Of a DNA stretch of 64,000 nt, positions 1 through 9,919 are shown piece by piece (position 1 is the first letter of the stretch; each line of letters begins with the position of its first letter). This stretch comes from Verrucomicrobiota bacterium. GTDB lineage: Bacteria; Verrucomicrobiota; Verrucomicrobiia; Limisphaerales; UBA9464. The notes beneath the pieces are model-generated. The model did not search any database. It saw only the letters and a program-made list of their open reading frames with translations, and had not been told where the DNA came from. Position numbers and translations under genes: made by a program. The stretch lies in the NCBI GenBank assembly GCA_016871615.1, contig VHCX01000010.1:1875-65874 (forward strand). The letters run 5' to 3'.

Positions 1-3000
1 CAGGATGTCCGCAGACGTCACGGCTTCGACCGTGACATCCTGGGGCTCCCGGTAATTGGCCGAGATGCGGCCCGAGCCGTTGAGCAGCGCCACATCCGCG
101 AGGTTGAACCAGCGGTTGTAGTCGTGCGAGGCGCCGCCACCGATGAGCAGCGTCTTGATGCCGTCGCCCCATTTGAGCGGCGCGGCGACCGGCTCGGCCT
201 GCGCCTGCTCGGGCCCCGCCGGGGCCCCCAGCTCGGCCGTGATGGCGAAGAGCGTCGGGGCGACCTCGTTGTCATAGCTCTCGAGCACCAGCTTCTGGAT
301 CACGCCGGGCTGGGTGATGTTCTTGGAGAGCCAGCGGATCTGGCCGGGACCCTTGGTCCAGCTCGGCAGGCCCTTCGAGCCGGTCACATCGGGCCGGCCG
401 CGGTAGTCGGCGACCTCCACGCCGTTCTTCAGGACGATCTCCTGGGTCGCACCGCCCTCGAACACCGCCGTGATCTTGAGCGCGTTGATCTTCTCGCCGA
501 CGGCCGGATACCCCCAGCCCGCCACGCCGCCCAGGAGGTGCAGCTTGGAGGCCGCCACACCGACCTTCAACTCCACCCGCTTGGGCAGGTTCTTGCGCGA
601 CCAGGAATCGGATGCGCCGCCCTTGAGGACCACCACGTTGGCCACGGCCTTCTCCGGGCTGATCACATCGAAGGGGATGTCCTCGACGCGCTTGAGCCCG
701 TAGCTGCGGAAGGTCACGGTGTCGTCCTCCTGCTCCGGCGTGATGTAGAGGCCGCGACCGCTGTTGGCGGTGAAGGCGCCGCCCAGGTCGAGGATGCGGA
801 AACGGGTGTCGTCGACCGTCATGTAGGCGAGCAGATCCCGGAGGGCCGCCGCGCCCAGCGCGTCGAAGCCCTCGGGCATGAGCGAACGGCCCGTGGACTT
901 GCGGTTGGCGATGTCGGACACACGCAGGGTGTGGTCGGAGGAGGCGTCGCGCAGGACCAGTTCCGAGGCGTTCTCACGCTCGATGATGCCGTCGAACTGG
1001 TCGCCCGACTTGGTCTCGACGCTGATGCTGATGAAGTTGGGCTCGACCACGCGGTTCGGGTCCACGATGTGGATCAGCAGGTCGGCGGCACCGTGGGCGC
1101 CCATGCCGTTGAGGTTCGGGGCCAGGTTGCGTCCCTCGCCTTTGTAGATGTGGCAGCCGGCACAGTTCGCGGTGAAGACCTTCTTGCCGTTGGCCACATC
1201 ACCGGGCTTCTCCACCTCGGGGCGCAGCTTGGCGATGAGGGCGTCCTTCTCCTTGGCCTCGGGGCCCTTCAGGTCGTCGATGATCTGCGTGGCGCGGGCG
1301 GCGATCTTGGCGTCACCATGGGTGCGCAGGCGGTGCAGCCGGGCGGGCCCCAGCAGCACCACGTCGATCTTGCGGGTGGCCAGCGCCTCGATGAACGCAG
1401 CCGACGAGTCGGCGCGCTTGAGCACCTGCGCGAAGGCCGTCTCCAGTTGACCCGGAGGCAACTGGGCGAACCGCTCGACCAGGGCCATTCCTCCCTCGGG
1501 CGCGGAACCCAGAGCCTCGATGAGCGACTTCTGGAGGCCCGGGCTGATGGCGGGGGTGACCAGCGAGGCGACCGACGGGATCACCGACGGCTCGATGTCA
1601 CGGACACCGATGAGGTTGGCCGCGATCTGGCCGCGTGAGGCGTCCGGGATCGACGCGTCGCGGATCTGGGCCGAGGCGGCCTGGATGGCGGGCTTGAGCT
1701 CGGCCGACAGGGCCGGGGCCGCCTTCCAGCGTGCCACGAGCGGCAACACCGAACCGGCGGTGTGCCCCGAGGCCAGGAGCGACTTCAGGGCGCCGAGGTT
1801 GGCCGCATCGAGTTCCGGCTGCAGGCGGGCCTCGAGGGCGGAGGACAGCGCCTCGAGGGCGGCGGCCTTGAGCCCGTCGGTGGCGGCAGGCTGGCGGGCG
1901 AGCAACTGCACCATCCGGCCGGCCAGGGCGGCATCCCGGCGATTGGCCACCAGGCGGGCCAGGTGCGGAACGTAACCGGCGACGAAGGCCGGATCCTTGG
2001 CGGCAAAGACCGCCTCGAGGAAGAGCAGCGGATCCTTGTCGGCGGCCCCGACCGCGGCGGACTCGAGCCAGCGGTCCTTGAGGTTGGGCCAGGCGGCCAC
2101 CACGGCGTCGGCCAACGCCCGGGAGGGCGGGAGCGAACCCGCGGACATCAGGGCGTTGATGCGCACGCGGCCATCGGGGTCGGAGAGGCGGTCGATCACG
2201 GCCTTCTCGGTCGTCTTGACCGGGTCGGAGTCGTTGGAGCGCAGGTTGGACGGATTGGCGGCAAGCTCAGTGGCGACGCGCAGGGCGTTCTTGCGAACCC
2301 ACGCCGAGGGATCGTTCAGCACCGCGGCGGCGGCCTCGTCCTGCCAGGGAACCGGCCCGTGCGAGGCGGCTACGCGGTAGAGCCAGAGGGCCTGGATGCG
2401 GGCCTCGGCCGGGGCCGAGGTATCGCCGATCAAGCTGCCAAGGCCCTCCAGCGCCGAGGCCAGCAGGGCGGGCTGCTCGATGAGCAGGCGGTTGGCCGTG
2501 GAGCGGACCCAGCCGTTGGGGTGGCTCAGGGCGGTGACCAGGGTTTCCGCGTCGTTGCGGTCGAGCCTGGCGGTCGGCAAGGCCTTGGCTTCCTGGTGCT
2601 GGATGCGCCAGATGCGGGTAAAGTGGTGGTCGCGGTCGGGACGCGCGGCGGCGTTTCGGGCACCGTGGGCCGGTCCGCGGGTGTCGTTGTGGACGGCGAT
2701 CTGGTTGTAGAGGTCGACCAGGTAGATGGCCCCGTCGGGACCGACACGGCTGTGGATCGGGCGGAACCAGTAGTCGGTGCTCGCGAGGAACTCGGTCTGC
2801 TTCCGGCCGTCCTCCTTGCGGCCCTGGTAGGTGGGGCCCTTCGGGTCGAGGAACTCGTGGTGGAAGAGCTGGCGGGTGGCCTCGCCCATGAAGAACGAAT
2901 ACCGCTCGGTGGCCGCCCACTTGGCCGGCCAGGCGCCGCCGTCGTAGATGGTCGCGCCCGCGGCCGCGGTCCAGGCGCCCACCCAGTCGATCTGCACGTA

Positions 3001-4644
3001 GGGCTGACGCTTCTCCTCGAAGGCCGGGTAGATCTTGTTCTCCTCGATGACGTTGAGGAACGACTTCATGCCCCCGACCTGGCCGCGGGCCAGGATCCTC
3101 TCGGGGATCACCACGTGGCAGATGGGCTCACCGCAGGTGGCCGTGGTGAAGAGGATCTCGTTGTCGGGGGCGATCTCGCAGCCCCAGGTGTTGCAGCCGC
3201 CGGCGGCGATCTGCTCCACGGCCGACCCGTCGGGCTTGAAGCGGTAGATGCCCGCGGCGATGTCGCCGAAGTCCTTGGATCCGTCGCCCGACTTCACGCG
3301 GCCGCGGGTGTAGCCGACCGATCCGTAGATCCAGCCGTCCATGCCCCAGCGGAAGTTGCTGATGACCGCGTGGGTGTCGAAGGTGCCCCAGCCGGTGTAC
3401 AGGGTCTCGACCTTGTCGGCCCGGCCGTCGCCGTTGGTGTCGCGGATCCACAGAATGTCCGGAGCCTGCGCCACGATCACGCCGTCCTTCCAGAACACCA
3501 GCGAGGTGGGCAGCTCGAGGCCGTCGGCGAAGAGGGTGCGCTGGTCGGCCACGCCGTCGCCATTGGTGTCCTCGAGGATGGAGATGCGGTCCAGCGGCTT
3601 GCGCGGCTGCTTGCCGCCGACCGGGAAGGCGGCGGGATTCTGGGCGCGGTTCCAGTAGGCCTTGAAGTCGTTCTTGTTCACGTCGCGACCGCCTGGGTAC
3701 TCGGGCGTCTCGACCACCCACAGGCGGCCCTTCTCGTCCCAGTCCATGGACATGATCTTCTCGGCCACGTTCTCGTCGGCCGTGAGCGAGACCTTGAACT
3801 CGGGATGCGTCTGGAAGGTCTTGACCGCCTCGGCCGCGGGCTTCGGGCCGCCGGCCGGGTACTTGAGCGAGGCGAGCTCCTCGGGCCTGCAGAACTCGTC
3901 GGCGTCGGCGCGCTTGCCGGCCCAGGCGATGCCGCGCAGCAGGATGGCCCGGTAGTGCGGCGTGTTGAACGAGTCGTATTCGTGGCCCGGGATGCTGACG
4001 AAGGCGCGGTACGGGGCCTTGCCCTCGGGCAGCGTCTTCTCGTAGGTCCACAGCTGCGGCCAGATGTTGAAGACATCGACGAAGCTCTGGGCCAGGACGT
4101 TCACATCCTCGGCCATGTCGAGGCGGTTGTAGACCTCGTCCTTCCAGTCGAAGTTAGACACGCCCTTCACGATCGGGTGCTCGGGGTTGACGAAGTAGAC
4201 CCCGACGTTGCCCTCATGCCACTGGGTCTTCTTGTCGCCGTCCCAGCGCCAGGCACCACCGATGATCTTCTTGCACCACTCGTGCTGGTCGCCGCTGACC
4301 ACGCCGTCGTGGACCACCACCACGCCGCCGCCGCGCGCCAGGAAGTGCTCGAAGCGGGCCCGCTCGTCGCCGGTGATCTTCATGCCGTCGGCGGCGTAGA
4401 TCACCAGCACGTCGGTGGCCTCGAGCTGGGCCGCCGTGGGGAATTCCATGGCACCGCTGGCGGTGACCCCACGTTCAGTGAGGAGCTTGGCCCATTCGCC
4501 CAGGAATCGGGGATGGTCGTGCTGGTCTGGGCCGTGGGTCTTGACGCCGCCGCGGATGAACACGCGGAGCGGGGCGGCATGGAGTCCGAGGGTGAGCGCC
4601 AACAAGGCCCACATCGGCAGGAGGTATCTCAGGAACGGTTTCAT
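1..4644 (-). CDS. Large secreted multidomain protein, C-terminus cut by the window edge: ThuA-like domain + membrane-bound-dehydrogenase-type repeat domain + HEAT-like repeats + PVC-type CxxCH heme-binding domain + start of a second ThuA-like domain
   Basis: Hand translation of the minus strand from ATG at 4644 (MKPFLRYLLPMWALLALTLGLHAAPL, signal-peptide-like) stays open to position 1 (4644 nt = 1548 codons). It is absent from the ORF track because no stop lies in the window. Motifs read: ThuA-like N-terminus (GGGVVVVHDG), DTNGDGVADQ and DTNGDGRADK repeats, heme site CAGCH, strong GC3 bias. Plus-strand ORFs 124..1638 and 1762..4908 are its antisense shadows. Confidence 0.85.
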   Translation of the reverse strand, partial: MKPFLRYLLPMWALLALTLGLHAAPLRVFIRGGVKTHGPDQHDHPRFLGEWAKLLTERGVTASGAMEFPTAAQLEATDVLVIYAADGMKITGDERARFEHFLARGGGVVVVHDGVVSGDQHEWCKKIIGGAWRWDGDKKTQWHEGNVGVYFVNPEHPIVKGVSNFDWKDEVYNRLDMAEDVNVLAQSFVDVFNIWPQLWTYEKTLPEGKAPYRAFVSIPGHEYDSFNTPHYRAILLRGIAWAGKRADADEFCRPEELASLKYPAGGPKPAAEAVKTFQTHPEFKVSLTADENVAEKIMSMDWDEKGRLWVVETPEYPGGRDVNKNDFKAYWNRAQNPAAFPVGGKQPRKPLDRISILEDTNGDGVADQRTLFADGLELPTSLVFWKDGVIVAQAPDILWIRDTNGDGRADKVETLYTGWGTFDTHAVISNFRWGMDGWIYGSVGYTRGRVKSGDGSKDFGDIAAGIYRFKPDGSAVEQIAAGGCNTWGCEIAPDNEILFTTATCGEPICHVVIPERILARGQVGGMKSFLNVIEENKIYPAFEEKRQPYVQIDWVGAWTAAAGATIYDGGAWPAKWAATERYSFFMGEATRQLFHHEFLDPKGPTYQGRKEDGRKQTEFLASTDYWFRPIHSRVGPDGAIYLVDLYNQIAVHNDTRGPAHGARNAAARPDRDHHFTRIWRIQHQEAKALPTARLDRNDAETLVTALSHPNGWVRSTANRLLIEQPALLASALEGLGSLIGDTSAPAEARIQALWLYRVAASHGPVPWQDEAAAAVLNDPSAWVRKNALRVATELAANPSNLRSNDSDPVKTTEKAVIDRLSDPDGRVRINALMSAGSLPPSRALADAVVAAWPNLKDRWLESAAVGAADKDPLLFLEAVFAAKDPAFVAGYVPHLARLVANRRDAALAGRMVQLLARQPAATDGLKAAALEALSSALEARLQPELDAANLGALKSLLASGHTAGSVLPLVARWKAAPALSAELKPAIQAASAQIRDASIPDASRGQIAANLIGVRDIEPSVIPSVASLVTPAISPGLQKSLIEALGSAPEGGMALVERFAQLPPGQLETAFAQVLKRADSSAAFIEALATRKIDVVLLGPARLHRLRTHGDAKIAARATQIIDDLKGPEAKEKDALIAKLRPEVEKPGDVANGKKVFTANCAGCHIYKGEGRNLAPNLNGMGAHGAADLLIHIVDPNRVVEPNFISISVETKSGDQFDGIIERENASELVLRDASSDHTLRVSDIANRKSTGRSLMPEGFDALGAAALRDLLAYMTVDDTRFRILDLGGAFTANSGRGLYITPEQEDDTVTFRSYGLKRVEDIPFDVISPEKAVANVVVLKGGASDSWSRKNLPKRVELKVGVAASKLHLLGGVAGWGYPAVGEKINALKITAVFEGGATQEIVLKNGVEVADYRGRPDVTGSKGLPSWTKGPGQIRWLSKNITQPGVIQKLVLESYDNEVAPTLFAITAELGAPAGPEQAQAEPVAAPLKWGDGIKTLLIGGGASHDYNRWFNLADVALLNGSGRISANYREPQDVTVEAVTSADIL

Positions 4645-4944
4645 GGCTTCGATCAAGGAAACGCCGACCACGGACGCTGGATCCGGCGAGCGCATTCGGA
4701 AGGAGGATTGACCCTTCCGCAAGAGACGACGGCAAGGCTGAAGCCGGCGATTGGGAACGTTGACCTAGTCGGAGCCTACCGGATCGCCGGGAATTGCGCC
4801 ATGCCTAGATGGCGGGCTGGCGTGGCAAGGTCCCGGGGTTGGCACCTCCCCCGCCCCGCGCCCCAGGGCGACCCATCGGTCTCGGGAATGCCCCGACGAA
4901 GCATTTGAAGCCCAGGCCGTCCCGGGCCACCATAACGGTCGTCC

Positions 4945-5568
4945 ATGACCGATTGCTTCGAGTTGCTCCAAGAACCCCGACGCCCCTGGCTTGACCCCGA
5001 CGCGCTGAAGGCGCGGTTTCTTGAGCGTTCGGCCGCGACGCACCCGGACCGGTTCCACGGGGCCCCCGAGGCCGAGAGGACCGCCGCCAACGCCCGTTCA
5101 GCGGAACTCAACGCCGCCTACAACACCCTCCGCGAGACCCGCGACCGGCTCTTCCACCTGTTGGAACTGGAGCGCGGGGCCCCGTCGCGGGACATCCAGC
5201 GCATCCCGGCGGGCACCATGGACCTCTTCGTGGAGATCGGGCACACCTGCCGCGATGCGGACGCCTTCCTGGCGGCCAACCCGGAAATCGAATCCCCGAT
5301 GCTGCGCCTTCAGCGGATGCGCCAGGCGCTCGAGTGGAGCGATCGCCTGATGGGTCTCCAGCGGCAGGTCAACGCACGGCGCGAGGCGATCGAGGCGGAC
5401 CTGAAGTCCATGAACGCGACCTGGGAGGTGACCCTGCCGCCGCCACCGTCGCCGGAGCGCCGCGAACGCCTGCCACTCGATGCGCTGGAGGAATCGGCGC
5501 GCGCCATGAGCTACGTGAGTCGCTGGACCTCGCAATTGCAGGAGCGCCTCGGGCACCTGGCCCGCTGA
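4945..5568 (+). CDS. HscB-like J-domain co-chaperone
   Basis: 207 aa. The N-terminus follows the HscB pattern (CFELLQ..., then HPD motif in SAATHPDRF), followed by a helical C-terminal half. No isc/suf genes are adjacent. Confidence 0.6.
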   Translation: MTDCFELLQEPRRPWLDPDALKARFLERSAATHPDRFHGAPEAERTAANARSAELNAAYNTLRETRDRLFHLLELERGAPSRDIQRIPAGTMDLFVEIGHTCRDADAFLAANPEIESPMLRLQRMRQALEWSDRLMGLQRQVNARREAIEADLKSMNATWEVTLPPPPSPERRERLPLDALEESARAMSYVSRWTSQLQERLGHLAR

Positions 5569-7645: not shown

Positions 7646-8413
7646 ATGCGAACCTCACAAAACCCTTCCGCCGGCTTCACTCTCATCGAATTGCTGGTCG
7701 TGATTGCGATCATCGCCATCCTCGCCGGCATGCTCCTTCCGGCCTTGGCCAAGGCCAAGGAACGGGGCAAACAGATCTCCTGCCTCAATAACCAACGACA
7801 GGTGGGTCTGGCCCTGACGCTCTACGAATCGGACCACCAGAGGCTCCCGCCGAAGGCCTCGCAGGTGTTGGACTTCATGAACCCGAAAGCCACCGGCTGG
7901 AAAAACAACTGCCTCTACGCGATCTCGACCTACCTGCAGGGGGACCTTCGATCCAGCTCCAAGGTCTACATCTGTTCGTCGGCCAAGAAGGCGGACCCGG
8001 CGGAGATCCGGCCGACGGCGGTGAGTGCCGCCAGCTACCTGCCGAACTCGGTCGTGATGGAGCTGCCGATGAGCGTCATCCCGAACCCCTCCGACACGAT
8101 CTTCCTCCAGGAGTGCCTGTGGTTAGTGAGCTTCACCGCCCTGCGACCGGCCGTGGCATCGGACTTCGGCCTGGGGACCGCGACTCAGTACACCTATTGG
8201 CATGACGGAGACAGCGGCAAGAGCGAGCTCTACTCGAATGTGCACTCCTTCGGGGGCAACCTCGCCTTCGTGGATGGTCATGCGGAATACCGGAAGGCCA
8301 AGCAATTGCGCGCATGGCATTTCGGCCTCGCCGATGGAACGAGCGGCAAGGCCGAGGACACCCAGGCCCGCCCCAGCACCTCGATCTACCGGAGCGCCTT
8401 CAACAGCCCGTGA
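7646..8413 (+). CDS. Prepilin-type N-terminal cleavage/methylation domain protein with C-terminal H-X9-DG motif (pseudopilin-like, DUF1559-type)
   Basis: Internal ATG at 7646 within ORF 7457..8413 gives [39 protein letters not shown] (G/FTLIEL cleavage-methylation motif). C-terminal [12 protein letters not shown] fits H-X9-DG exactly. Confidence 0.85.
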
Positions 8414-8589
8414 ACCACCGGCGGGGAACCTCGGTCGCCGGAACAGGCACCGAATCGTGAGACGACTCCGGGAGCATCGCCCGTCCGGGAGCGCCCGAGG
8501 GTCAGGATGCCGCGAAAAGAAACGGGGCCGCCGACGCCGAAATGGATCGGCAAGGCATGTCGCGGGGCCGAGGAGGGAGTGGATGGGAT

Positions 8590-8632
8590 AAAAAAACCGG
8601 GGCGCCAGTCAGAGGATGACCGTACGCCCCGG
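8590..8632 (-). terminator. Candidate intrinsic terminator (minus strand)
   Basis: On the minus strand, stem CCGGGGCG (8632-8625) pairs with CGCCCCGG (8604-8597) and is followed by T7 (8596-8590). The 20-nt loop is longer than typical, so confidence is moderate. No annotated minus-strand CDS ends here. Confidence 0.4.
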
Positions 8633-8639
8633 GGAATAA

Positions 8640-9290
8640 TCAGAATCAGTTCAGTAGGACTTAGTGGAGATTCTGGGTTGTTGAACAACGACACCCCAGA
8701 AAACGAGCGATGCGTGAGTTTTGTGAGCCAACCGTCTCACGAGGGTGAGACGGTTGTAAGACGGTGATTTCATTTTTGGTCAAACCATCCGAATTGACAC
8801 GCTTGGTTCTACAACTCTTCGGATCCACAACTTTTCGGATTCTAGGCCCTTGGGAAATGAATTCCTGTGAGTTCGAAAAACCTAAGGTCTAAATCCGTGG
8901 GATTGACCGTTCTGTTTTGAAGCTGTTTTCTTCGGCATTCGAATTTATAACCAATGAATCTTTCCGAATTCCTCGTAAAACAACCGTAACAGAACGATCA
9001 CTGCGTGGCCGACCGGAATCAAATTATCTGATTCCGTCAAACCACGCTCCTAATTCTAAGCGTCAGGAATTCCAAGCACGACCAATTCCTAGCATCACCA
9101 ACTGACTCAAGCACCAAAACTTCAGTCCCGTCGGAAAGAGACGCTGCGCAATCGCCTTGGAAAGCCTTCCAAGGTAACCCCTTCGGCAGCCTCCAAACTG
9201 AGTCTCTTTCCAGACTTTCTGTCAAACGCGGTACAAAGAACGACCTCAGGTTAGCCGAGTTCTCCGTTCCGTCAAGGGCCGACTTCATTT
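8640..9290. other. Low-GC, ORF-poor, hairpin-rich intergenic island (candidate large ncRNA or foreign-DNA remnant)
   Basis: Counted GC is 27/60 for 8881-8940 and 21/60 for 8941-9000, versus 41/60 for coding line 9421-9480. No convincing ORF. Multiple perfect hairpins: 8729-8756 (12 bp), 9014-9036 (8 bp), 9065-9090 (7 bp), and the nested helices 9133-9211. Confidence 0.6.
9248..9275 (-). promoter_or_regulatory. Candidate sigma-70-like promoter reading into the low-GC island
   Basis: The minus strand reads TTGACG (9275-9270), a 16 nt spacer, then TAACCT (9253-9248). Same TTGAC(A/G)-N16/17-TAnnnT layout as the two plus-strand candidates at 28225 and 30321. Confidence 0.3.
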
Positions 9291-9412
9291 TTCGGCGGCG
9301 CCAAGCTCCCGGCGGTGATTTGGGTCCACTTGGTCCGGAGGCCGCACCTTGCGGGACTGACAACGGTGCCCGACTGGGCTTTCCTTGGGGGGAGCTCGAT
9401 GTTCCTCCTCCC

Positions 9413-9919
9413 ATGAACGCCCACGAGATCACCGCCTTCGCCCTGACCCTGCTGGTCATGCTCATCGGGTTCGCGGGGGCGATCCTGCCGGGGTTGCCCG
9501 GGACGCCGCTGATCGCGGTGGCGGCCCTGGCCCACCGGGGCTTTCTGGGGGATCGTGGAGCCTCGCTCTGGGTGCTGGTCACCCTCGTGGTCATGGCGGC
9601 CATCTCGTCGGCCTTGGATTTCGCGGCGGCCACCTACGGGGCCAAGCGCCTCGGAGCCACCTGGCGCGGGATGGCGGGTGCCCTCGTGGGCGGCCTGTTG
9701 GGATTGTGGTGGCCGCCGATCGGCTGGATCGCAGGCCCGTTGCTCGGGGCCATCGCCGGGGAATGGCTTGGCGGACGCCCTTGGAACGAGGCGGGCAACG
9801 CCGGTCTCGGGGCCGCGCTGGGCCTGATGGCGGGCACCGCCGTGAAGGTGGCCGGCGCCGGGGCCATGATCTGCCTCTGGGTCGTCCACATCCTGTGGAA
9901 GTCCTTCAACGCGGCTTGA
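9413..9919 (+). CDS. DUF456-like small membrane protein
   Basis: Internal ATG at 9413 of ORF 9320..9919. MNAHEITAFALTLLVMLIGFAGAILPGLPGTPLI and four hydrophobic, glycine-rich segments match my recollection of DUF456. Confidence 0.6.
   Translation: MNAHEITAFALTLLVMLIGFAGAILPGLPGTPLIAVAALAHRGFLGDRGASLWVLVTLVVMAAISSALDFAAATYGAKRLGATWRGMAGALVGGLLGLWWPPIGWIAGPLLGAIAGEWLGGRPWNEAGNAGLGAALGLMAGTAVKVAGAGAMICLWVVHILWKSFNAA

Follow-up and report, generated by a model that had tools for sequence, protein, structure and literature searches.

Evidence that a low-GC island in a Verrucomicrobiota contig is probably part of an expanded member of an uncatalogued structured-RNA family

We analyzed a 64,000-nucleotide (nt) stretch of DNA from a Verrucomicrobiota bacterium (assembly GCA_016871615.1, contig VHCX01000010.1, positions 1,875 to 65,874 of the forward strand), hereafter the window, in which positions 8590-9290 form an island of low guanine-plus-cytosine (GC) content. 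The reading that we favor, with a probability of roughly 70%, is that positions 9241-8590 of the minus strand are a non-coding RNA (ncRNA) gene of approximately 652 nt, an expanded member of an uncatalogued family of freshwater Verrucomicrobiota, and that the island is an expansion co-transcribed with the rest of this RNA. That a real structured-RNA gene is present at this site we have little doubt. Only approximately 200 of the 652 nt are conserved in the family; approximately 80 are invariant, among them the terminator stem with its UCCUC loop.

The island, which a preliminary description of this DNA made from its letters alone had pointed out, is the sole low-GC stretch of the 64 kb. In 300-nt windows the mean GC content of the whole stretch is 0.692 (standard deviation 0.041), the minimum is 0.437, approximately 6 standard deviations under the mean, and the windows below 0.56 all lie within 8501-9350; in 200-nt windows GC is 0.42-0.46 at 8700-9100 versus approximately 0.69 around it. 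A gap of 999 nt without genes holds the island, bordered on one side by a prepilin-type N_methyl/DUF1559 (pilin-like) gene (7646-8413, plus strand) and on the other by a DUF456 gene (9413-9919, plus strand, E=1e-29). Gene callers left this gap empty in 10 contigs of the same population and in 3 relatives. The absence of a convincing open reading frame (ORF), also proposed in the preliminary description, was borne out: the ORFs inside the island encode only 31-62 amino acids, the ORF at 9037..9633 of the minus strand is antisense to the DUF456 gene, and eight island ORF translations had no Pfam match at E<=1, in a search that did not include an all-protein BLASTX. A decayed protein gene was rejected on the Pfam result. 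The 652-nt minus-strand RNA folds with a minimum free energy (MFE) of -238.7 kcal/mol (z = -4.97 versus dinucleotide shuffles), and the density of hairpins and of two short motifs that had been remarked on by eye proved to be statistically real, with 8 copies of GGAAT/ATTCC observed versus 1.7 expected (0 of 500 shuffles reached 8) and 4 copies of TCCGAA/TTCGGA versus 0.8 expected (2 of 500 shuffles). Most of these copies are the paired arms of palindromic stems and not loops.

Relatives of the locus were found via DUF456 homologues of falling identity and then through the contigs that carry them, and approximately 60 related loci were compared, all from uncultured Verrucomicrobiota metagenome-assembled genomes (MAGs) or metagenome contigs. 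At least 23 metagenome contigs carry a gene for an identical DUF456 protein, and all of them match the window in gene order and in having a 1-kb gap in which no gene was called. Because this gap is 97-99% identical among them, these contigs can be regarded as a population sample, mostly from Lake Tanganyika as judged from the Joint Genome Institute (JGI) sample series. Three loci in which DUF456 is approximately 74% identical (L012-L014) share the order DUF362-like, GNAT, gap, DUF456, cytochrome c, and their gaps of 1.1-1.45 kb each contain a low-GC stretch. BLAST comparison of these gaps with the window found one block, window 8590-8709, approximately 94% identical over 115-120 nt, the rest being dissimilar. 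The same block occurs in L015 (64% protein identity) in a gap of 462 nt without the long low-GC segment. When a 21-base pattern from the invariant block was used as query, 31 species-level genomes were recovered, all of them Verrucomicrobiota MAGs bar one doubtful bin, and a second, non-overlapping pattern recovered 31 metagenome contigs; neither pattern was found on IMG/VR viral contigs.

A covariance model built on the conserved 3' domain (R1) gave exactly one match per locus, that of the window being 8589-8715 on the minus strand (149.5 bits) and nothing else. With filters off, R1 also reached a divergent member (L083, 115 bits) in 'Pedosphaera sp.' GCA_009695405.1, where the adjoining DUF362-like gene has 52% identity; at the more distant loci of either DUF456 or DUF362-like genes, no member was found. 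Wherever the upstream DNA is long enough to judge, the elements follow one another in a fixed order: promoter, start, variable segment 1, GGACTGAAGTTTTGG, variable segment 2 and the 127-nt 3' domain, at the end of which is the terminator. The predicted RNAs measure 166-256 nt in several lineages and 418-440, 454, 492, 552-561 and 623-658 nt in others, with the longest in L079 (790 nt) and L036 (808 nt), and the window, at 652 nt, is one of the longest family members. As to the names of the carriers, the closest genome match to the RNA and to the DUF362-like gene of the window (91% protein identity) is L029 (JBIKMQ010000070.1), deposited as 'Candidatus Chromulinivoraceae bacterium'; all other carriers are labelled Verrucomicrobiota, several lake MAGs among them as 'Akkermansia muciniphila', and both these labels and that of L029 look like binning or naming errors.

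The conserved core consists of a 5' end, a short internal block and the 127-nt 3' domain (8589..8715, minus strand), which is the covariance-model match; it is nearly 100% identical from locus to locus, and that of the window is approximately 94% identical to that of L012, L013 and L014. The internal or mid block common to related loci is GGACUGAAGUUUUGG; in the window it reads GGGACUGAAGUUUUGG (9114..9129, minus strand) and forms the predicted 5' strand of a helix that we call P2. It is identical over 17-18 nt in the window, L036 and L040 while the sequence on either side cannot be aligned, and such identity amid unalignable sequence indicates that the block and its 3' partner belong to one RNA. 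Within the 3' domain, hairpin H1 (8671..8701, minus strand) has a stem that covaries, and its loop region, GUCGUUGUUCAAC, is conserved. The hairpin is followed at 8633..8667 of the minus strand by the stretch CCACUAAGUCCUAC, the predicted 3' strand of P2, and by the single-stranded tail UGAACUGAUUCUGAUUAUUC, both invariant in 22 lineage representatives; the tail is rich in A and U, and the terminator hairpin follows it directly. The alignment columns of these two elements supplied the pattern that recovered the 31 species-level genomes. The sequence GAACUGAUUCUGAUUAUU is also invariant and is unpaired in most MFE and consensus folds, although in some a part of it pairs with the 5' end of the RNA.

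Comparison of the relatives provided the covariation that identifies this domain as a structured RNA. For H1 and the terminator hairpin H2 together, in 39 distinct 3' domains aligned with the model, 97.7% of the pair cells hold standard pairs, versus 86.5% in shuffles and at most 45% in slid structures; 101 cells show changes on both sides versus 34 in shuffles, and none of 500 shuffles reached the observed covariation score, nor did any slid structure attain the observed values. In H1, 5 of the 10 pairs have changed on both sides (for example UA/GC/CG and AU/GC/GU/CG/UA), 94% of the cells are paired, 0 of 500 shuffles reached its observed score, and the loop GUUGUUCA is invariant. H2 is 100% paired in the 39 sequences, with two double compensatory changes and two G-U/A-U or C-G/U-G switches, and in L083 it has a further compensatory change from G-C to A-U. 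A model-based alignment leans by construction towards structure; the alignment made with MAFFT only, which is not structure-fitted and puts H1 of one subclade out of register, still gave 0 of 500 shuffles. The strand is fixed as well, because the U-G and G-U pairs exist solely in the minus-strand reading.

Two further helices are predicted by folding. P1 and P2 recur in the MFE folds of approximately 20 short forms, in the RNAalifold consensus (of the short forms and of the 420-nt clade) and in L083. In nearly all short forms P2 is predicted to pair GGACU..AGU of the mid block with ACU.AGUCC (8655-8665) of CCACUAAGUCCUAC and, in the models, it is the closing helix of a three-way junction whose other arms are H1 and a peripheral hairpin, Ha. 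Enforcing P2 on the RNA of the window costs 0.9 kcal/mol. P1 would join the 5' end to the invariant tail, as GUUC-GAAC or CAGAG-UUCUG; for the 420-nt clade the predicted partner of the tail is CAGAGUU, a 5' segment close by. In L083, 6 of the 14 bases of the 3' strand of P2 and several mid-block bases have changed, and P1, P2, Ha, H1 and H2 still fold.

The ends of the gene are marked by a promoter and a terminator that recur in the family. The promoter-like element TTGACG-N16-TAACCT at 9275-9248 of the minus strand (TTGACG at 9275-9270, a 16-nt spacer, and TAACCT at 9253-9248) was read from the sequence. In essentially all relatives with enough upstream DNA, a TTGAC[AGT]-N16/17-TAnnnn element stands at the same distance from the 5' end of the RNA, and the spacers of these promoters are unrelated to one another in sequence. 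Conservation across the family argues that the element of the window is no chance match but the promoter of the family. In most lineages the -10 element is separated by 6-7 nt from a conserved GTTCTTT start; the conserved 5' end is GUUCUUUG in most loci and, in the window, GUUCUUUGUACCGC (9228..9241, minus strand), where transcription would start and where GUUC is predicted to pair with GAAC of the invariant tail in P1. At the other end, the terminator hairpin H2 with its U7 run (8590..8632, minus strand) comprises the hairpin at 8632-8597, with 15 bp, one bulge and the loop UCCUC, and the uridines at 8596-8590; in many relatives the U-run is interrupted (TTTTGTTT). The preliminary description had placed the promoter and terminator at exactly these coordinates and had assigned the minus strand, and all three calls agree with the comparison of relatives. 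Its further proposal, a transcript of approximately 650 nt bracketed by the two, holds in so far as both signals are conserved but has to be refined, as only approximately 200 nt are conserved and the low-GC bulk consists of lineage-specific expansions.

Several observations made at the two ends stand on their own. Most relatives have a second GC-rich hairpin with a U-run 5-10 nt past the terminator of the RNA and in the same orientation, that is, tandem terminators (for example L013 ~4900-4935 and L015 ~4610-4640); the window has no second hairpin in the same form. Short-form loci carry an extra conserved element 75-150 nt upstream of the RNA promoter, TTTGAACA(A/T) ... CCGTCTGCAT ... GTTCTTTGGAAG, located at ~4860-4990 (minus strand) in L015, ~2270-2400 (plus strand) in L022 and ~1870-2000 (plus strand) in L024, and present also in L025, L045 and L021. 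It is absent from 9276-9412 of the window, the region upstream of its promoter. Finally, a GTTCTT(T)GGAAG box recurs at the 5' end of the RNA and in 15-nt tandem units of the variable segment of L036; it may represent a site bound by a regulator, or the remnant of an internal duplication.

The low-GC bulk of the RNA is formed by two variable segments. Variable segment 1 (var1; 9130..9227, minus strand) is a long imperfect hairpin of approximately 98 nt, GUCUGGAAAGAGAC...GUCUCUUUCCGAC, with the perfect palindrome CCUUGGAAGGCUUUCCAAGG; it is absent or very short in short-form relatives and reaches approximately 545 nt in L036. Variable segment 2 (var2; 8719..9113, minus strand), of approximately 395 nt and GC 0.42-0.47, contains multiple hairpins and is the core of the island. 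In the fold of the window RNA with P2, var1 is modeled as one hairpin between P1 and P2, and var2 as a branched expansion of Ha. Across lineages, the combined length of the two segments ranges from approximately 60 to approximately 680 nt at two fixed sites. The variable segments of every long form have a GC content of 0.32-0.47 in genomes of 0.57-0.69, and their rarest sense-strand base is C in all of the 7 lineages compared. Between clades they cannot be aligned. This is so even for the window and L036, in spite of DUF456, pilin-like and cytochrome c proteins that are 87-90% identical and a mid block that matches at 18 of 18 positions.

Folding is retained in these segments. In all 7 independent lineages the variable region folds on the sense strand with z = -2.4 to -6.3 versus shuffles (var1 plus var2 of the window, 512 nt, z = -6.3), and in 5 of the 7 antisense folding is clearly weaker. 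In the 420-nt clade most pairs of the variable region are kept via G-U/A-U/G-C switches, and 7 pairs have changed doubly. No 5-mer was enriched across the inserts of the seven independent lineages (best combined z = 3.7 in 1024 tests). Within subclades the inserts are 72-99% identical and diverge gradually, at approximately 3 to more than 20 times the rate of the flanking DNA, most clearly in three pairs: L036 and L079 are 99.8% identical in the flanks and 90.9% in the variable part, L044 and L059 97% and 70%, and L013 and L044 95-96.5% and 83%. A sliding-window comparison puts the RNA region first, or joint first, among the divergence outliers, and between L044 and L059 neighbouring non-coding DNA is also raised. 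Between L036 and L079 there are approximately 22 substitutions, along with three changes in the copy number of 14-15-nt tandem units. In the window, tandem units of 16 nt occur at 8805-8836 and 9068-9101, and the variable segment is rich in perfect palindromes.

The same pattern is seen within the population of the window, where polymorphism was counted in nine contigs. There are 34 segregating sites in 398 nt of var2 (8.5%) and 4 in 97 nt of var1; the 3' domain has none in 129 nt, the mid block none in 14, and the other two parts of the same gap 1 in 176 and 0 in 137. In six flanking genes, 8 of 2131 third codon positions segregate (0.38%), so that var2 is approximately 20-fold more polymorphic than these. 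All population haplotypes fold at -230 to -244 kcal/mol: foldedness and composition are maintained, and individual pairs loosely so. In the variable segments, single-nucleotide polymorphisms (SNPs) also occur in tight clusters of 2-4, at 8893-8896, 9024-9030 and 9072-9075, as a haplotype shared by L005 and L007. Such clusters are the pattern expected of multi-base events (template switching at quasi-palindromes) or imported alleles, and not of independent point mutations. Adenine-specific mutagenesis of the kind produced by diversity-generating retroelements was rejected, as the SNP spectrum is ordinary (approximately 22 transitions and 16 transversions, with all base types) and no reverse transcriptase is encoded nearby.

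Several of our results weigh against an expanded 652-nt RNA gene or limit how much of it can be taken as established. The transcription start and the single long transcript from 9241 to 8590 are predictions made from the DNA sequence. A generic sigma-70 scan misses TTGACG-N16-TAACCT, because TAACCT is a poor -10 element that matches at 3 of 6 positions only; we judge the promoter to be real because its position is conserved in relatives. P1 and P2 as modeled rest mainly on conservation and thermodynamics and show little true covariation, because their strands are nearly invariant. In the variable region, 25 of 38 SNPs fall at positions predicted to be paired, which is no depletion, and 9 of these 25 keep the pair versus a random expectation of 19%. 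As SNPs are not depleted in stems, single hairpins are weakly constrained and the MFE model of var2 is not to be trusted. The polymorphism of var2, at 8.5%, exceeds what simple relaxed constraint would give, and a further process is also at work; candidates include hypermutation, slippage or template switching at tandem or quasi-palindromic repeats, core-mediated allele exchange and diversifying selection. Finally, duplex energies between four conserved parts of the RNA and the translation initiation regions of neighbouring genes (DUF456, DUF362-like, pilin-like and cytochrome c, in up to four genomes) were at background, and no target was identified.

The near absence of constraint and the high polymorphism of the variable segment, together with the fact that the 3' domain is the sole long block conserved everywhere, could also mean that only a short RNA of approximately 130-200 nt is made, from an unrecognised promoter near 8720-8790, and that the upstream low-GC DNA is only a spacer, either not transcribed or without relevance, such as decayed or AT-rich promoter DNA. 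A weak TTGACC-N18-TTACAA at ~8784-8755 would be in the right place for this. We consider such a short RNA unlikely. The distal promoter and the GTTCTTT start are kept beyond the insert in every long form, whatever the length of the insert, and upstream of var2 the mid block, the partner of the 3' domain, has stayed 100% identical. The lineages have no proximal promoter in common, nor was one called in the window, and the advantage of sense over antisense folding, seen in 5 of 7 lineages, points to selection acting on the RNA.

A second alternative accepts the long RNA and gives its hypervariable segments a function of their own, as a diversifying module on an invariant RNA scaffold that would act either as a decoy or recognition surface in conflict or as a locus of programmed hypermutation or allele exchange. 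The conflict could be between host and phage or between strains; alternatively, the 100%-identical core blocks could possibly serve as recombination arms. If true, the segments would be to a non-coding RNA what hypervariable loops are to proteins, and this would account for a polymorphism approximately 20-fold that of third codon positions and higher than in the remainder of the gap, for inserts that cannot be aligned between genomes with 87-90% identical proteins, and for the sense-strand folding kept in every lineage. It is nonetheless a speculative reading, to which we attach only a small probability.

The position of the RNA in the larger clade of the family, in which it always lies 100-400 nt upstream of a DUF362-like gene and in the same orientation, with protein identities of 52% to 97%, raises the question of whether it is instead a cis-regulatory leader, riboswitch or attenuator of the co-directional operon of the DUF362-like and GNAT acetyltransferase genes. 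In L015 the spacing is 108 nt, and a second clade also has a co-directional conserved downstream gene. The arrangement is not constant: in the window and in L036 the opposed pilin-like gene intervenes between the RNA and the DUF362-like gene with the RNA core unchanged, and the downstream gene varies by clade, being DUF362-like, an unrelated protein of 470 amino acids or a convergent aldo/keto reductase. Moreover, the RNA ends in a strong and nearly invariant terminator, followed in most loci by the second terminator-like hairpin, and the MFE and consensus folds showed no anti-terminator pairing by the 5' arm of H2, although no systematic search for it was made. A leader function is therefore improbable. 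The neighbours provide no functional clue either, as they are DUF362-like/GNAT and DUF456 genes in one clade and different genes elsewhere, among which are those for an RlmI-like methyltransferase, BacA, the convergent aldo/keto reductase and the 470-amino-acid protein.

That the island is foreign or mobile DNA, either a palindromic element resembling miniature inverted-repeat transposable elements or a decayed acquired gene that landed in or beside a small RNA (sRNA) gene, would fit a GC content 25 points under that of the genome, the many perfect palindromes and a presence and length that vary between lineages, but is very improbable. The 64 kb contain no second copy, no similarity was found to 72,556 plasmids or 50,697 phage records (distant mode), the RNA is not on viral contigs, and the island ORFs have no Pfam signal. 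The inserts of different lineages share neither sequence nor enriched k-mers, which argues against one family of elements, and their gradual divergence within subclades (72-99% identity) together with local tandem duplication indicates growth in place and not repeated insertion. Equally doubtful is a protein sponge like CsrB or RsmZ, in which a repeated hairpin motif (GGA or UUCGGA/GGAAU) would titrate an RNA-binding protein and expansion would tune the number of copies: the RNA does vary in length and in its number of hairpins, length shifts by tandem duplication, and GGAAT/ATTCC and TCCGAA/TTCGGA are over-represented in the window RNA, but GGA occurs 14 times versus 14.3 expected, no 5-mer is enriched across the seven lineages and the motifs of the window lie mostly in palindromic stem arms and not in loops.

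The expanded ncRNA gene that we favor has no counterpart in the databases that were searched. With the 4227 covariance models of Rfam 15 at gathering thresholds, there was no match in the whole window; at E<=10, region 8350-9500 and two short forms gave only chance-level matches, many of them on the wrong strand, the best being Collinsella-1 at 17.8 bits versus a threshold of 35, on the antisense strand. In 14 related loci Rfam identified only two tRNAs, both in L015 and away from the RNA, and ARAGORN found no tRNA or transfer-messenger RNA in the window. The preliminary description had been unable to assign the island to a classic RNA family, and the same now holds for its short relatives. 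Literature searches found no described Verrucomicrobial sRNA of this kind. A stand-alone bacterial small-RNA gene is a known kind of gene, the family appears to be new, and expansion segments several times the size of the core are unusual.

The core resembles the Hfq-type sRNAs, such as SgrS and RyhB, in that it has a stand-alone gene with its own promoter, a Rho-independent terminator with U7, an A/U-rich single-stranded stretch before the terminator and exposed conserved loops as possible seeds. Among the features given for such sRNAs in PMC5558911 is a Rho-independent terminator with at least 7 U, and the Hfq-binding module of enterobacterial sRNAs is described there and in PMC4509938 as an A/U-rich stretch plus a U-rich terminator. 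The RNA of the window has a terminator with at least 7 U and an A/U-rich stretch upstream of it, and in this it resembles that module; a scan for the YKHAI motif of Hfq in the fetched DNA, which covers only 64 kb of this genome, found nothing credible. The family differs from these sRNAs in being longer (166-808 nt), in the closed three-way-junction core that is predicted for it and in having approximately 80 invariant nt, far more than a seed. With CsrB, RsmY and RsmZ it shares a variable length, many stem-loops and an intrinsic terminator, but it lacks enriched GGA, a motif common to the lineages and a match to the corresponding Rfam models. Like 6S RNA it is conserved, single-copy and housekeeping-like, with very high sequence conservation; unlike 6S RNA it has no long closing stem and central bubble, its 3' end is a terminator hairpin, and RF00013 did not match even at E<=10 on the short forms. 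GOLLD, ROOL, OLE and HEARO are similar in size (600-800 nt), in their origin from lake metagenomes and in a function that is not known, but in these RNAs the large structure is conserved and covarying, whereas here approximately 200 nt are conserved and the bulk is hypervariable; the Rfam models of all four gave no match.

The expansions themselves are best compared with the intervening sequences (IVSs) of 23S rRNA, which occur in helices 25 and 45, as in the 428-nt IVS of Coxiella (PMC4990558). In both cases, lineage-specific, variable stem-loops of lower GC are found at fixed peripheral helices of a conserved RNA, and their presence and length differ among close relatives; sporadic insertion at fixed sites and extended stem-loops, the marks of an IVS, are both seen in our family. 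The host, by contrast, is a small RNA of regulatory type, there are two insertion sites, the inserts are free of ORFs and they grow by short tandem duplications. In rRNA, IVSs are removed by RNase III and are tolerated because they leave the core undisturbed.

Some further observations concern the surroundings of the RNA gene. The pilin-like gene occurs at this site only in the population of the window and in L036 and is missing in relatives at 74-83% identity, which indicates a recent, lineage-specific insertion beside the RNA terminator. In one short-form clade the gene for a protein of approximately 470 amino acids lies directly downstream and co-directional in four loci (L024 2227-3768, plus strand; L050 3728-5140, minus strand; L043 2304-3716, minus strand; L062 5035-6525, plus strand); the proteins are 82-96% identical and have no Pfam match at E<=1e-4. 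Three loci carry 6-10 tandem copies of an 18-nt repeat, GGGACAGGCTCCNCCCAA, in the interval from the downstream hairpin of the RNA to where the DUF362-like gene starts (L013 ~4620-4800, L014 ~2850-3000 and L012 ~4960-5090), with a copy number that differs between L013 and L014. Because its period equals six codons, this repeat may encode an N-terminal repeat of the DUF362-like protein rather than being non-coding. The cumulative GC skew of the window (1-64000) climbs to a maximum at ~4.8 kb, is level until ~12 kb and declines steadily from there to the end; the region of this turn overlaps with the RNA locus, is without a cluster of DnaA boxes, and may be explained by gene orientation alone. 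A replication origin was rejected, since the island has one DnaA box with 2 mismatches and no skew minimum, and the only two DnaA sites with at most 1 mismatch in the window are both outside the island.

Altogether, these results are consistent with the following picture of the RNA. The 5' end of the core would pair with the 3' tail (P1), and GGACUGAAGUUUUGG would pair with CCACUAAGUCC (P2), closing a three-way junction; the core would continue with the peripheral hairpin Ha, H1 with its GUUGUUCA loop, the A/U-rich tail and the terminator with its UCCUC loop. This core is probably the functional part, most likely a trans-acting regulatory RNA or the partner of a protein, acting via its exposed loops and its tail. 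The approximately 80 nt that are invariant across lineages with 50-75% identical proteins exceed what a seed needs, which suggests contact with a conserved protein or machine. Var1 and var2 would be inserted at two structurally permissive sites, the interval between P1 and P2 and the hairpin Ha, would be transcribed together with the core and would fold into long hairpins. They may grow partly by tandem duplication of 14-16 nt and, under little sequence constraint, drift to an AU-rich and C-poor composition. Weakly constrained transcribed DNA that drifts to an AT-biased mutational equilibrium could explain such a composition. The two segments would thus behave like the IVSs of 23S rRNA and, by the same analogy, might be trimmed by RNase III.

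Hardly any regulatory RNAs have been characterised in Verrucomicrobiota. In this family a single-copy core stays approximately 100% identical while the flanking proteins are 50-75% identical, a degree of constraint that is usual in RNAs serving conserved cellular machinery, and the family therefore offers a testable way into the RNA biology of an abundant freshwater phylum. For the window, a compositional anomaly that gene callers had left blank would be explained, and R1 can be used for annotating the family in other genomes. On the reading that we favor, a small RNA can bear rRNA-like expansion segments of up to four times its own size, and the family would be a system provided by nature in which to ask how insertions arise in structured RNAs and are tolerated there, and what composition unconstrained transcribed DNA takes in high-GC genomes.

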